A stretch of DNA of 64,000 nt, from NCBI GenBank assembly GCA_963666515.2, contig OY762897.2, positions 4,512,001-4,576,000 on the forward strand, given 5' to 3'. Below the pieces are notes generated by a model. The model was not told the DNA's origin and did no database searches. It was given only the letters and a program-made list of their open reading frames with translations. Made by a program: the position numbers and the translations under genes. This document shows positions 60,441 through 64,000 of this stretch, piece after piece; position 1 is the first letter of the stretch; each line of letters opens with the position of its first letter. This DNA is from Candidatus Binatia bacterium (GTDB taxonomy: Bacteria; Desulfobacterota; Binatia; UBA9968; JAJDTQ01).

Positions 60441-61313
60441 ATGCCAAAACTTGACGGCGATGGGAACTTGGCAACGAAGCCGGTATTGCCGTTCCTCAAA
60501 TGGCCAGGTGGTAAACGGTGGCTCGTTCCCATCCTACTGACAACTATTCAGCCGACGAAGTTTAAGACGTATTACGAGCCATTTCTCGGTGGTGGTGCGT
60601 TCTTTTTCGCGCTGAATCCCGCAAGTGCTGTTCTTTCAGATGTTAACTCGGACCTAATTAACACCTACCGACAAGTCAGGTACCGTCCTTCCGTCTTGAT
60701 TCGTCAACTCCAAATGTTACCCGTGACAAGGCAGACCTACGAGTCACAGCGCAGACACTCGCCCAAGCGATCTCTCGACCGAGCAGTCCGTTTCCTGTAT
60801 TTGAACCGCACCGCTTTCGGTGGTATCCATCGCCTTAACCAGAGGGGCGAATTCAACGTCCCGTTTGGCGGCGGCGAGCGAACTCCGAAACCCCTTTGGC
60901 AGTCTGGTTTGTTACAAAGAGCCGCACGAGCTCTTCGATCAAGCACCCTTAAAGTTTGCGACTTTGAGCTCGCGATTTCTGAAGCTGATTGTGGCGATCT
61001 GGTCTACTGCGATCCAACGTATACTGTCGCGCACAACAACAACGGCTTCGTTCGATACAACGAGAACAATTTTTCCTGGGCGGATCAGCGGCGACTTGCC
61101 AAGTGCTGTCGTCAGGCGTCGCGAAGGGGTGCGACGGTCATCGTCAGTAACGCGGCTAGTCCGGATGTTCTTGAGCTATTCGATCCCCCACGGCATTTTA
61201 CTGTGAGTCGATCTAGCAACCTCTGTCCCAGAGTAGAGTATCGGCGTGCAACAGAGGAATACTTGTTCGTTTTCTCCTCGGACACGACAGCCCGAGTTGG
61301 ATCGACCGAGTGA
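60441..61313 (+). CDS. Dam-family (D12 class) DNA adenine methyltransferase with variant DPTY motif
   Basis: LKWPGGKRWL, YYEPFLGGGA, SDVNSDLIN, FLYLNRTAF.G...N..G.FNVPFG and VYCDPTY motifs. Confidence 0.9.
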   Translation: MPKLDGDGNLATKPVLPFLKWPGGKRWLVPILLTTIQPTKFKTYYEPFLGGGAFFFALNPASAVLSDVNSDLINTYRQVRYRPSVLIRQLQMLPVTRQTYESQRRHSPKRSLDRAVRFLYLNRTAFGGIHRLNQRGEFNVPFGGGERTPKPLWQSGLLQRAARALRSSTLKVCDFELAISEADCGDLVYCDPTYTVAHNNNGFVRYNENNFSWADQRRLAKCCRQASRRGATVIVSNAASPDVLELFDPPRHFTVSRSSNLCPRVEYRRATEEYLFVFSSDTTARVGSTE

Positions 61314-62869
61314 GCTTGACGATGAAGAGCGAGTTTCTAGTTGTGGCCAAGAAGCTCATGGAGAGTGAGAGGCACCCGATGTCGGCTCGAGAGTTGGTTA
61401 AACTGGGAATGGATCGGCAACTCTTCTCGGATAAGATCGCGGGAGAAACTCCTCACCAAACGATGAAGGCCAAGTTGAGTGTTCACATCCGCCGGTTGGG
61501 TGAAAACAGTCTCTTCATCCGTACAGAACCAGGACGGTTCTTTCTGCGACACCTACTTGATAGTAACAGGGAACCGTTTGACGCCAAACCGATCGCACCT
61601 GTCGCGAGCACAGAGCGTGTCTGGGTTTACCGAACCACGGAACTCGACGGGCTAACGACATGGCAGGGGTTGTCGTCAGCTTGGAAGAAGGTAACCCTTG
61701 CCATGTTTTCTACGCTTCGGTGTGATGTTCGAGAGCGCCTTGAGGTTGAGGAAGACAACGATTACACACAGCTTCTGACATATGTCTTGGTCACAAGAGG
61801 TGAGGCCGTTTTGGCATACAGGCGAGGGACCTACAACCGAACTGAACGATATCTGAGAGGGTCGTTTTGCGTCGGTTTTGGGGGTCATGTGATAGAGGGC
61901 GACTTTGATCTCTTTCATGCGGGAGTTGAAGGGATACTTGAGAGTGCATCACGGGAGTTAATGGAGGAGCTGTCTCTTCCACCAACCGACATCGGACGAC
62001 TACGGCGACACGATGACTTGAAGATTGTAGGGATCATCAACGACGATTCTTCGGAGGTGGGCAGACGGCATCTAGCGTTCGTCGTCAACTACGAGGTTAG
62101 CGGTGATAGGTACTGGGACCGTCCCGAGAGAGGGGAGAAGGCGGTCACACAGTTACACTGGATTTCCACCACCGGAACGGCTCAGGTTTCCTTGTGGAAC
62201 TTTGAATACTGGTCACAGCTTTGTCTCCGGCAGTTCAGGCCACGTTTGGTGCGGGAGCGTGCAGCATACCGGCTACTCCGGCGGCGGTCACTGCGGCCTC
62301 CGCACATCTTGTGCATGATTGGCCCGGTTGGCAGCGGGAAGACGATCGCCACAGAGGTCTTGAGAAAGGACTTTGGTTACCGTGAGATCAATTCGGGGAA
62401 GGTCCTAGCAGGTATACTCAAGATTAAGCCGGTATCTGCCGCTCGTAGGCGACAGTTTCAACAGCGGGCGTGGCAATTCATCTCGCAGGAGAGTGGTCCC
62501 ATGCAACTTGCGAAGAGGATCGTCGAGATCGCAAATGGTTTGAACTCGGACAGAATCGTCGTCGATGGAATACGACAAGGACGCACTGTCGAGTCATTGA
62601 AGTTCCTCCTTGGAAGTAGACGACTTGGAGTTGTATTCGTGCAGACGCCTGTGGATTTGGCCTTCAAGTTTTTCGTCGATCGTTTTCCAGAGAATGCGAC
62701 GATGGCCGACTTCTTGGCTGCTAGAGACGCACTGGTCGAACAAGAAGTCGAAGAACTCATCTCAAAGGCCGACGCGGTCCTGTACAACTGGACCGGAACC
62801 CCTCAATATCGTGAAACCATTCGCGCCATGATGAGACAACTCGGAGTTTCCCGGGGGATTGGACGATGA
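61310..62869 (+). CDS. HARE-HTH + NUDIX phosphoesterase + P-loop nucleotide kinase fusion
   Basis: aa 5-80 PMSARELV...GETPHQTMKAKL...FIRTEPGRF (HARE-HTH); YRRG...GFGGHV...RELMEEL...GIINDD..EVGRRH...EYWSQ (NUDIX); GPVGSGKT...VDGIR...KADAVLYN (NMP/dephospho-CoA kinase-like). Confidence 0.8.
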   Translation: MSLTMKSEFLVVAKKLMESERHPMSARELVKLGMDRQLFSDKIAGETPHQTMKAKLSVHIRRLGENSLFIRTEPGRFFLRHLLDSNREPFDAKPIAPVASTERVWVYRTTELDGLTTWQGLSSAWKKVTLAMFSTLRCDVRERLEVEEDNDYTQLLTYVLVTRGEAVLAYRRGTYNRTERYLRGSFCVGFGGHVIEGDFDLFHAGVEGILESASRELMEELSLPPTDIGRLRRHDDLKIVGIINDDSSEVGRRHLAFVVNYEVSGDRYWDRPERGEKAVTQLHWISTTGTAQVSLWNFEYWSQLCLRQFRPRLVRERAAYRLLRRRSLRPPHILCMIGPVGSGKTIATEVLRKDFGYREINSGKVLAGILKIKPVSAARRRQFQQRAWQFISQESGPMQLAKRIVEIANGLNSDRIVVDGIRQGRTVESLKFLLGSRRLGVVFVQTPVDLAFKFFVDRFPENATMADFLAARDALVEQEVEELISKADAVLYNWTGTPQYRETIRAMMRQLGVSRGIGR

Positions 62870-63489
62870 GCGGGGGTTACGACGAAGGATATCGACGCTG
62901 CCCTTGTTTTTGGGGCACTAGTCCAGGTAGTTATGTTAAGATTTTAACTCGTTATGTCCGTTCGTTTGACGGTCTCAAGGTCCTCGATGTGGGGTGTGGC
63001 GAGGGGAAGAACGCCGTTTTTTTGGCTGGCCTCGGTGCCGTGGTTGACGCGGTTGACGTTTCACCAGCAGCAATCGAGAACGGTACCAGGATGTGGGGGA
63101 AAGTGAGCAAGGTTTGCTGGATGGTCGCGGACATCCGTGAGTTAGAGTTGAGTCAGGAGTACGACATAGTAGTAGCGTATGGTCTCTGCCACTGTCTTAA
63201 CGACTCTACGGAGGTGTCAACTGTGGTGGCAAAACTGCAGGCCGCAACTGCAAGGGGAGGGTACAACGTACTGTGCGCCTTCAACGACCGTGGTCAGGAC
63301 CTCCTTTCTGCACACGCTGGTTTTGAGCCATGCCTATTAGGACACAGCGACTATCTGTCACAATATGCATCGTGGACAGTCCTTGCGGCGTCTGATTCGG
63401 ACCTAACAGAGAGGCACCCGCATAATGGAATCGACCACACACACTCGCTAACGCGCATTTTAGCAAAAAGAAGACATGATGTCGGTTGA
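62866..63489 (+). CDS. Class I SAM-dependent small-molecule methyltransferase (TehB-like)
   Basis: VLDVGCGEGKNAVFLA, VDAVDVS, YDIVVAYG and GGYN motifs. Confidence 0.88.
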   Translation: MSGGYDEGYRRCPCFWGTSPGSYVKILTRYVRSFDGLKVLDVGCGEGKNAVFLAGLGAVVDAVDVSPAAIENGTRMWGKVSKVCWMVADIRELELSQEYDIVVAYGLCHCLNDSTEVSTVVAKLQAATARGGYNVLCAFNDRGQDLLSAHAGFEPCLLGHSDYLSQYASWTVLAASDSDLTERHPHNGIDHTHSLTRILAKRRHDVG

Positions 63490-64000
63490 GGATCTAAAGA
63501 GGTTGTATCGCGACGGACGGCTACTACCGTTCATTGGCGCCGGTGTGTCAGCGTCCGTGGAGTGGAGCGATGCGATGGGTTTACATCGCGGACCGACATG
63601 GGACGAAGTCGTGAGGCACGCGACGCATGAGCTAGGATTTGAAAATGCGACGTTACTCCGTGCAAGGGGGACTGATCTGCAGATACTAGAGTACTTTAAG
63701 CTACAGCATGGCTATGCTCCACTAACGAACTGGTTGGTTCGAGAAATGAACCCGCCAGACGACATTCTTAATAGGTCCATGATTCATAGCGAGCTTGCGA
63801 GGATGACTAAATGTTCAGTCTTTTATACCACAAATTTTGACGACTTTATCGAACGGAGCTTTAAGCTCCACGGGCGCAAGCATAAGAGGGTTGCGGTCGA
63901 GAGAGACATGGGGTCTCAAGAGGGAGTGGCGGAGGTCGTGAAATTCCACGGAGATTGGGGCCATCCGGAGCAAATGGTCCTGACGGAGTCAGACTACGAA
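63476..64000 (+). CDS. SIR2-family (SIR2_2) protein, partial, runs off the right edge
   Basis: Hand translation, absent from the ORF track: MMSVEDLKRLYRDGRLLPFIGAGVSAS...PTWDE...FYTTNFDDFIERS...VVKFHGD...MVLTESDYE; open for 175 codons. Confidence 0.9.
   Translation, partial: MMSVEDLKRLYRDGRLLPFIGAGVSASVEWSDAMGLHRGPTWDEVVRHATHELGFENATLLRARGTDLQILEYFKLQHGYAPLTNWLVREMNPPDDILNRSMIHSELARMTKCSVFYTTNFDDFIERSFKLHGRKHKRVAVERDMGSQEGVAEVVKFHGDWGHPEQMVLTESDYE

Follow-up and report, generated by a model that had tools for sequence, protein, structure and literature searches.

We analysed a 64,000-nucleotide stretch of DNA from Candidatus Binatia bacterium (assembly GCA_963666515.2, contig OY762897.2, positions 4,512,001 to 4,576,000 of the forward strand; G000:C1:4512001-4576000 in our numbering), hereafter called the window, and studied the operon at its 3' end, which probably encodes a relative of the Kongming anti-phage system. 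A preliminary description, made from the letters of the window, had reported four co-oriented genes here, joined by three overlaps of stop and start codons. The open reading frame (ORF) calls agreed with this (GTGA at 61310-61313 between g1 and g2, ATGA at 62866-62869 between g2 and g3, and 14 nucleotides at 63476-63489 between g3 and g4) and left g4 still open at 64000. The description had advised retrieving the sequence past this point. In the extended record (L002, in which a coordinate equals the window coordinate minus 58000) g4 was completed at window-equivalent position 64303, and 3 nucleotides past its stop a fifth co-oriented gene, g5, began, so that the window truncates the operon. 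Across the five genes, spacing or overlap is 0-14 nucleotides. The operon reads as follows:

60441-61313, + strand: g1, predicted D12-class (Dam/DpnM-like) N6-adenine DNA methyltransferase, 290 amino acids (PF02086, 2.4e-40)
61310-62869, + strand: g2, predicted fusion of HARE-HTH, Tm1382-type Nudix and AdkA-like P-loop nucleoside monophosphate (NMP) kinase domains, 519 amino acids
62866-63489, + strand: g3, predicted TehB-like class I S-adenosylmethionine (SAM)-dependent small-molecule methyltransferase, 207 amino acids (PF03848, 3.4e-15)
63476 to window-equivalent 64303 (L002 5476-6303), + strand: g4, KomC-like SIR2 protein, 275 amino acids (SIR2_2, PF13289, 2.1e-29)
window-equivalent 64307-64963 (L002 6307-6963; G000:C1:4576307-4576963), + strand: g5, KomB-like HAM1/ITPase, 218 amino acids (PF01725, 3.5e-15)

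The last two genes connect the operon to a named system. Kongming consists of KomA (adenosine deaminase, PF00962), KomB (HAM1-like, PF01725) and KomC (SIR2, PF13289) (Zeng et al., bioRxiv 10.1101/2024.12.20.629578; Science 2025), and its structures are deposited as 8zsf-8zsi, 9xvc and 9v0g. In the accessible part of the preprint, KomB is described as an inactive enzyme that senses deoxyinosine triphosphate (dITP), and defensive HAM1 proteins are said to carry an Asp-to-His replacement invariably (bioRxiv 10.1101/2024.12.20.629578). The best PDB match of g4 was KomC (8zsf, 1.8e-38, residues 5-258), followed by a second Kongming SIR2 protein (9v0g_E, 5.2e-30), versus ~1e-14 for ThsA. The motifs GAGVS, TTNFD and KFHGD, already noticed when the gene was cut off by the window end, are present in the completed g4 and are kept in 57 orthologues, with the catalytic His (FHG) in 57/57; here and below, motifs were counted in tblastn matches covering at least 85% of the query, leaving out divergent SIR2/HAM1 pairs. 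For g5, the best PDB matches were the two Kongming HAM1 subunits (6.9e-23 and 1.4e-22), a housekeeping ITPase following at 4.4e-10, and a family profile of 16 sequences placed the Kongming HAM1s at 1.5e-31 and 5.9e-30 versus 2.2e-16 or weaker for housekeeping ITPases. Where the catalytic Asp would stand, g5 reads IVEHAG, and its orthologues have VEHAG (49/50) or VEHGG (1/50). A separate housekeeping HAM1 elsewhere in the host genome (E 2.2e-45) has kept both the VED and the SHR motif.

Judged by sequence, the traits that mark the Kongming pair are therefore present: a stand-alone SIR2 protein with its catalytic His (g4), a HAM1 of the defensive clade in which Asp is replaced by His while the Lys and Glu of TxNxxKxxE are kept (g5), and adjacent, co-inherited genes for the two (g5 was found in 56/56 evaluable related loci). 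Since g4 and g5 match the solved KomC and KomB best, we assign the effector to Kongming and regard the two proteins as a predicted pair of KomC (SIR2 NADase) and KomB (hydrolytically dead HAM1 sensor). The preliminary description had not recognised its four-gene architecture as any named system, and in this it did not hold: the effector gene is a KomC homologue, and the gene just beyond the window encodes a KomB-like dead HAM1. A prediction of the g4-g5 complex, with each protein given as a 16-row alignment, scored 0.27, the mark being 0.32, and speaks neither for nor against a contact like that of KomBC.

The other three genes encode a DNA methylase, a multidomain fusion protein and a second methyltransferase, and for all four genes in the window the domain calls of the preliminary description are supported by profile, PDB or fold matches. 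The g1 protein scored 195 bits with TIGR00571 dam (cut-off 115), and its best PDB match was DpnM (3.8e-45, residues 15-249), with Escherichia coli Dam at 1.1e-29. It resembles these two enzymes in its D12 sequence, and differs from them by its linkage to a KomB-KomC module and by motif IV, which is DPTY in g1 and DPPY in the aligned DpnM and E. coli Dam. Because DPTY occurs in 24 of 53 g1 orthologues (the others have DPPY, 22; DPPF, 4; DPAY, 3), the Thr appears to be a tolerated variant. No nuclease domain that could serve as a restriction endonuclease partner was detected among g2-g5, all of which have other assigned folds; judged by known folds, the pairing of methylase and cognate endonuclease that defines a Type II restriction-modification system is absent from the cassette. 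As g1 is the sole full-length D12 match in the host genome, the cassette would bring its own N6-adenine marking.

In g2, HARE-HTH spans about residues 12-81 (Pfam, 4.6e-9), the Nudix domain about residues 140-300 and the NMP kinase about residues 330-505. The Nudix domain had no Pfam call and was found instead by PDB sequence and fold matches: residues 140-257 matched Tm1382 (3e57, deposited as a putative Nudix hydrolase; E 1.2e-8), and residues 334-501 the AdkA-like kinase 3lw7 (E 1.2e-5). An AlphaFold model built from a 34-sequence alignment (pLDDT 84.4, pTM 0.73) matched the same folds in Foldseek, with TMt 0.70 for Tm1382 3e57 and 0.79-0.80 for the kinases 3lw7 and 3h0k. The motifs GFGGHV, REL-x-EEL (the Nudix-box core) and Walker A GSGK[TS] are kept in the 79 orthologues scanned. 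The GTG start that overlaps g1 is there in the sequence as first described; conservation among the orthologues, however, starts at MKSEFL, and the true start of g2 is for this reason probably the ATG at 61322, 9 nucleotides past the g1 stop. The g2 family comprises at least 329 clusters at 90% identity in a large protein collection. Among the matches listed, most are about 510 amino acids long and most carry a precomputed HARE-HTH (PF05066) annotation; the JGI name for g2 homologues is 'predicted NUDIX family phosphoesterase/dephospho-CoA kinase'. One related locus (L080 2225-4084) encodes a 619-residue g2 variant in which a CheW-like domain (3.9e-27) takes the place of the kinase end; either a genuine domain swap or a chimeric assembly could lie behind this, and the HAM1 of this locus is identical to that of another, L069. 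The third protein, g3, also matched generic methyltransferase families in Pfam and TehB structures in the PDB (9e-12), and its SAM motif GCGEGKN is kept in 64 orthologues.

As the preliminary description had recommended, a defence-system classifier was run. PADLOC 2023 assigned g1 to the type II or orphan methylases, g3 to mad2 (6.1e-15) and g4 to ThsA (1.2e-27, covering only profile positions 19-214 of 478); g2 gave only a weak IetA match (5.6e-4), g5 gave no match, and the system as such was not classified. The ThsA label is of a known kind, since Kongming has been auto-annotated as Thoeris because of the shared SIR2 domain (NAR 2026 paper), and the five genes contain no TIR or SLOG domain, so that the combination expected of Thoeris (a TIR protein ThsB and a ThsA with SLOG/Macro) is not found here. 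NCBIfam is unable to classify such a system, because in a control the known Zymomonas KomB and KomC also reached only generic families, below the cut-offs.

To see how constant the gene set is, we collected 84 related loci, 4 genomic (three Bryobacterales metagenome-assembled genomes and one Sericytochromatia metagenome-assembled genome) and 80 metagenomic, the latter being the best 80 of 209 confirmed. Genes were mapped on them with tblastn (E at most 1e-5, at least 50% coverage), and only loci with enough flank were counted. The presence of each gene beside g2 was:

g3: 68/71 evaluable loci, 64 in canonical position
g4: 61/63 evaluable loci, 55 in canonical position
g5: 56/56 evaluable loci, 50 in canonical position (L020 left out, where the match is a housekeeping rph-rdgB HAM1)
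Dam-like g1: 56/69 evaluable loci, 47 in canonical position

In all 45 loci with room for every gene, g2, g3, g4 and g5 occurred together. A Dam-like gene was found by tblastn in 38 of these 45, and a D12 methylase of some kind in 41 when divergent ones were included (those of L011, L044 and L062, which are longer). When the loci, host included, were dereplicated at 98% g2 identity, g3, g4 and g5 accompanied g2 in 41/41 loci, a Dam-like gene in 34/41 and any D12 methylase in 37/41. The preliminary description had held that its idea would fall if the four genes failed to co-occur in other genomes; they do co-occur, and the catalytic motifs of all five genes are conserved. Most of the misses could be explained: there were two loci with insertion sequence (rve) insertions (L067 and L041), one with a lone g2 beside an AlkZ-like gene (L073) and two with short flank (L080 and L081). 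The gene order was permuted to g3-g4-g5-g1-g2 in L040, L069, L077 and L080 and divergent in L062, and the flanks vary among loci and are often of defence type (HEPN_Swt1+DUF499, caspase+AAA, TCAD9, transposases).

KomA is missing from this set. No deaminase domain was detected among the five cassette genes, PF00962 was absent from the host genome (98.35% complete), and tblastn searches with the Zymomonas and Vibrio KomA proteins, which detect each other, gave no match in the 85 loci or in the host genome. The adenosine deaminase that completes a Kongming operon is thus not part of the cassette. Seven loci (L045, L049, L070, L071, L076, L083 and L086) have a distant SIR2/HAM1 pair with only 28-39% identity to g4 and g5 and a typical g2-g3, which looks like an exchange of effector modules within the family. 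Several variants (L043 4171-5875, L044 2504-5887, L048 1754-5876, L050 5445-6008, L053 and L055) contain additional genes in the same orientation, placed ahead of the methylase and g2 or between them; these encode DndB-like proteins (PF14072), another D12 methylase, a kinase-like AAA_28 protein (about 188 residues) and unassigned proteins of about 282 and about 441 residues, which suggests an expanded DNA-modification arm. Upstream of g2 in three of the loci without a detected D12 methylase lie genes for proteins of 846, 359 and 467 residues with no Pfam family (L006 4238-6778, L068 3713-4792 and L085 4230-5633, respectively), which are possible alternative partners.

We also compared the HAM1 pocket with that of KomB. 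In the accessible parts of the structural work (PMC13454610, Nat Commun 2026), O6 of hypoxanthine is hydrogen-bonded by F140, H11 and, in the active state, Q141 of KomB; the 2' position is crowded by Q141 and W142, and R168 gives the base further stability; mutation of K49, F140, Q141, W142 or R8 abolishes defence. In the accessible text of the original report, N9, K12 and E15 are required as well (bioRxiv 10.1101/2024.12.20.629578); N9 is also among the residues described as touching dITP. As canonical references we used the KomB proteins of three plasmid loci, from Zymomonas (deaminase/HAM1/SIR2), Vibrio (deaminase-HAM1-SIR2) and Pantoea (HAM1-SIR2 only), and divergent pairs were added to the HAM1 alignment and tree with a coverage limit of 75%. 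At the four positions compared (Asn, catalytic residue, Q141, SHR motif) the groups read:

main g2-linked clade: S/H/Y/SQS (47/49)
divergent g2-linked clade: N/H/Q/SQA (5/5)
canonical KomB: N/H/Q/SMR (3/3; the catalytic position is Q in Zymomonas)
housekeeping HAM1: N/D/G/SHR (2/2)

The equivalents of KomB residues 140-142 are thus F-Y-W in the main g2-linked clade versus F-Q-W in the canonical proteins, and SQS stands versus SMR[RK]. Of the 54 g2-linked HAM1s, 49 have Tyr at the Q141 position and 53 lack the Arg of the SMR/SHR motif; the one other row, L030, is misaligned at that motif. In addition, g5 is longer than canonical KomB, with three insertions. A maximum-likelihood tree (59 rows, 53 distinct) separated defensive from housekeeping HAM1s (94/92) and the 54 g2-linked HAM1s from canonical KomB (85/83), and the main clade formed a group (99/99) on a long branch. 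The divergent HAM1s, scorable in 5 of the 7 loci, have the canonical Asn and Gln and are without the SMR Arg. A HAM1 can therefore be paired with g2 and g3 without the changes to Ser and Tyr. The pocket changes of g5 would fit a ligand different from dITP, without proving one.

The reference set itself gave some further observations. The KomB of the Zymomonas plasmid pZMOB01 (L093 3439-3996), which is linked to KomA, reads VEQ, with Gln where the catalytic Asp has been lost; the His described as invariant in defensive HAM1s is therefore missing from at least one of them. Large Pantoea plasmids very commonly carry the KomB-KomC pair (95 Pantoea records), and the Pantoea locus L095 has no adjacent adenosine deaminase, the pair there following an amino-acid ABC transporter operon.

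The base composition sets the cassette apart from its surroundings, as had been noted from the window: GC content is 0.68-0.75 over positions 56,000-59,000 and 0.51-0.56 over 60,500-64,000. It returns to 0.64-0.70 only beyond window-equivalent 65,500, and all five genes lie inside the low-GC stretch. The g2 fusion gene occurred in 1 of 401 sampled genomes of the host's phylum, namely the host itself. Because of this rarity and of the mean GC content of the cassette (~0.53 vs ~0.70 for the purM/purN region), we conclude that it is foreign to the host and was acquired horizontally, and the earlier view of a foreign operon of defence type is supported. We also considered whether the cassette is phage-borne and dropped this idea, as the g2 alignment found only a single partial match, 47 residues long, in a collection of viral contigs.

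How does the cassette relate to systems already described? With Kongming it shares a SIR2-only protein of ~270 residues beside a HAM1 of ~200 residues with the Asp-to-His replacement, the defence-island context and horizontal mobility. It differs in lacking KomA, in gene order (SIR2-HAM1 vs HAM1-SIR2 in the three canonical loci), in its longer HAM1 changed at N9, Q141 and the SMR Arg, and in having its own NMP kinase, so that borrowing a phage kinase is unnecessary; it adds the SAM methyltransferase, the Nudix and HARE-HTH domains and usually a Dam-type methylase. Metis (MisA/MisB; types I-III) depletes NAD+ when Dam-marked host DNA yields N6-methyl-deoxyadenosine monophosphate (m6dAMP), and operons of the predicted type III have their own methylase (bioRxiv 10.1101/2025.11.05.686725, accessible part). 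Compared by this description, the proposed logic of the cassette is similar, with NAD+ depletion triggered by a methylated adenine deoxynucleotide and a clean-up enzyme that lowers the background; unlike the cassette, the Metis effector MisA has no SIR2/HAM1 pair, yields nicotinamide mononucleotide and senses m6dAMP directly, and there is no kinase. The PUA-Calcineurin-CE-HAD system, from what is accessible of its report, likewise senses Dam-derived m6dAMP, with an effector that depletes deoxynucleoside triphosphates (dNTPs) and no domain common to the cassette (bioRxiv 10.64898/2026.01.15.699771). Thoeris ThsA, DSR1/2 and SIR2-pAgo have the SIR2 NADase domain in common with g4; g4 differs from ThsA in being SIR2-only, without the SLOG/Macro sensor, and the cassette has no TIR gene for ThsB. 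The analogy to Kongming (kinase and base-modifying enzyme feeding a SIR2 protein) and to Metis, drawn in the preliminary description, was apt. The description had also conceded that a match to an already described system would count against it, and this came about by half: the effector matches Kongming, the signal module does not.

The cassette is accordingly not categorically new as far as sequence tells; its effector comes from a named system and its signal module differs, and the best reading is that of an uncharacterised Kongming subtype. The accessible text of Zeng et al. contains one sentence, in section 11, stating that KomBC modules without KomA associate with 'NTPase and SAM-dependent methyltransferase' and calling for more study; that text gives no test, ligand or name for these associations (bioRxiv 10.1101/2024.12.20.629578). 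The cassette very likely falls under this remark, and its five-gene layout may already be drawn among the 'candidate types' of their fig. S19A. Recent reviews and commentary, in their accessible portions, describe the three-gene Kongming only. Our literature search on Kongming/KomBC/HAM1+SIR2, Metis/m6dAMP and m6dATP/HARE-HTH/Nudix returned no paper naming, dissecting or testing the cassette.

Taking these data together, we propose, with a probability of roughly 0.6, that the five genes make up an abortive-infection cassette which belongs to the Kongming family and signals via a methylated purine (deoxy)nucleoside triphosphate. The steps from marking by g1 to ligand binding by g5 were derived from domain identity, gene linkage and the pocket changes. 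In this scheme, g1 would mark the host chromosome with N6-methyladenine, and infection would release methylated and unmethylated purine deoxynucleoside monophosphates (dNMPs), for example from phage-driven chromosome breakdown. The g3 protein may methylate the base of the free nucleotide or provide such methylation, a role like that of KomA as the deaminating enzyme of Kongming. The diphosphate would be made by the g2 kinase domain, a step for which Kongming borrows a phage kinase, and the triphosphate by the host nucleoside diphosphate kinase; the Nudix domain of g2 could keep the background of the signal nucleotide low or supply the monophosphate substrate. The re-tuned HAM1 pocket of g5 would then bind a methylated purine dNTP, N6-methyl-dATP being our first guess, and g5 would switch on the NADase g4, so that NAD+ collapses and the infection aborts. 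We infer that g3 and g2 replace KomA as the signal-making module. Of the two methyltransferases g3 is favoured as the core methylating enzyme, because g3, unlike g1, is universal.

The HAM1 family owes its name to sensitivity to an N6-modified adenine analogue. A methylated purine is suggested as the messenger because HAM1 sensors read non-canonical purine triphosphates, because the cassette encodes an NMP-kinase fold and with it the step that Kongming takes from the phage, because it supplies its own N6-adenine marking, as predicted for Metis type III, and because the Nudix domain could hold down the background, as MisB does in Metis. In Kongming a phage dNMP kinase is the trigger and KomBC assembles into filaments; the NMP-kinase fold of the cassette argues for another trigger. 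The chemistry of the preliminary description (m6A in DNA or a methylated nucleotide, kinase and Nudix, SIR2 activation) is still the best inference; the SIR2 protein would, however, be activated through the HAM1 subunit and not directly, as that description had it. A more far-reaching form of this proposal, which we hold only tentatively and consider rather doubtful, is that the cassette uses a second base-modified nucleotide alarmone: starting from m6dAMP set free from the chromosome that the cassette itself has methylated, or from a purine dNMP that g3 has methylated, its own kinase would lead to a methylated purine dNTP, read by a HAM1 whose preference has shifted from hypoxanthine to a methylated purine. 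If true, the detection of self-DNA degradation known from Metis would here be coupled to the Kongming effector, with no need for a phage kinase.

Several points weigh against the methylated-purine proposal. With kinase, methylase and Nudix all built in, a phage-specific trigger is left unaccounted for. Four of the 45 full-room loci (L006, L045, L068 and L085) have no detected D12 methylase and g3 is universal, which means that the cassette need not methylate DNA; this weakens the version with Dam-derived m6dAMP relative to that with a signal made by g3. The five divergent g2-linked HAM1s retain the KomB-like Asn and Gln, and the equation of SQS with KomB R168 rests on the alignment of three canonical sequences, as the PDB alignments end before the site. 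A search for a lead on the g3 substrate gave generic TehB-like clusters in the ESM Atlas and TehB, NodS and UbiG-type enzymes in the PDB, and a literature search for TM1382/COG4112/3E57 turned up a survey of the Nudix clan and unrelated articles, but no functional paper on the substrate of Tm1382-type Nudix proteins. Finally, neither PADLOC 2023 nor NCBIfam has a model that recognises the cassette, and no independent classifier call stands behind the assignment.

The missing trigger would be supplied if the cassette worked like a restriction-modification system, with g1 marking self and the HARE-HTH domain reading unmethylated incoming DNA, upon which Nudix, kinase and g3 would make the activator of the HAM1-SIR2 pair. 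The DNA-binding HARE-HTH domain with which g2 always begins, the D12 methylase alongside g2 in most loci and the DndB-like, DNA-modification-associated genes of some variants all fit this idea. Discrimination of methylation by HARE-HTH is, however, without support, DNA binding need not regulate the enzymes, and the loci without a detected D12 methylase still keep HARE-HTH; we consider this explanation unlikely. The accessory enzymes could also act downstream of the NADase, the Nudix domain destroying ADP-ribose and the methyltransferase or kinase modifying nicotinamide or ADP-ribose products, which would block the rebuilding of NAD+ by the phage. ADP-ribose hydrolysis is a classic Nudix activity. 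Some variants have the AAA_28 kinase-like gene beside g2, and aRES makes NADase products unusable by phage NARP1 in the accessible part of its report (bioRxiv 10.64898/2026.01.28.702374). But NMP-kinase folds act on nucleotides, and g3 showed no similarity to nicotinamide N-methyltransferases in Pfam and PDB searches, which makes a downstream role very unlikely. We give as little credit to its corollary that the HAM1 ligand comes from Dam-marked DNA or from host or phage metabolism alone, since canonical KomBC needs a dedicated signal enzyme and the four loci lacking D12 would have none.

A more conservative possibility is that the signal is still dITP (or ITP/XTP), made by another route, with the methyltransferases as accessories. 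In g5 the overall fold and sequence of KomB are retained, as are the two aromatics of FxWD and the Lys and Glu that bind phosphate, and the Asn and Gln of the divergent HAM1s speak for the same; on the other side stand the lack of any adenosine deaminase family match in the host genome and the loci, the Tyr at the position of the O6-contacting Q141 and the loss of the SMR/SHR Arg. On balance we see only a slim chance for a retained dITP signal. That an orphan Dam methylase and nucleotide-housekeeping genes merely happen to lie beside a KomBC pair is strongly disfavoured and highly improbable: orphan Dam-like methylases are indeed common and the folds of g2 and g3 generic, but the association of g2, g3, g4 and g5 is without exception in the full-room loci, through permuted orders and different flanks, the five genes are tightly packed in one low-GC island, and the host has its own housekeeping HAM1 elsewhere.

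The interest of the methylated-purine proposal lies in what Kongming has already made plain, namely that a base-modified nucleotide, dITP, can be an immune messenger; the cassette makes the search for others directly testable. Its sensor-effector pair is that of Kongming, with methyltransferases and a built-in kinase where Kongming has a deaminase and a hijacked phage kinase, and the sensor pocket differs at published ligand-contact positions. This makes it a concrete candidate, open to cloning, for a messenger of the methylated-nucleotide kind. Two further matters might be learnt from it: by what changes a HAM1 pocket comes to be re-tuned, and how a defence system that brings a genome-marking methylase with it can work in hosts without Dam. 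By the number of its clusters, the family is substantial in environmental metagenomes.

The neighbourhood of the cassette contains the following further features (coordinates beyond 64000 are window-equivalent):

59672-59992 and 59992-60417, + strand: VapB-like and PIN/VapC toxin-antitoxin pair (PIN, PF01850, 3.3e-18)
65083-65410 (L002 7083-7410), - strand: relic of a HigB-like toxin gene (C-terminal 36/91 profile positions, E 1.4e-4, below the Pfam cut-off)
65370-66545 (L002 7370-8545), + strand: AAA_14 + DUF4143 ATPase (PADLOC candidate system PDC-S01, 2.7e-78)
73161-73236 (L002 15161-15236): tRNA-Asn(GTT), ~8 kb downstream of the cassette

The position after purN and a toxin-antitoxin pair, as given in the preliminary description, was confirmed, with profile matches for purM, purN and PIN (VapC). 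Among the related loci, the VapB-like/PIN pair is common to L003 only and is context, outside the conserved cassette. Together with this pair and the PDC-S01 candidate, the cassette forms a small defence island. No convincing direct repeats were found at the island borders, where only three short two-copy families were seen. Scans for promoters and terminators stayed at the level of chance (4 promoter-like sites vs 3.4 expected; 2 terminator-like sites vs 5.3 expected, none of them on the + strand within the operon), which is weakly consistent with a single transcript. The AAA_14/DUF4143 gene lies directly 3' of the cassette, and L003 retains only roughly its last quarter. A 32-codon ORF with a good ribosome-binding site follows the HigB relic and may be a truncated antitoxin.

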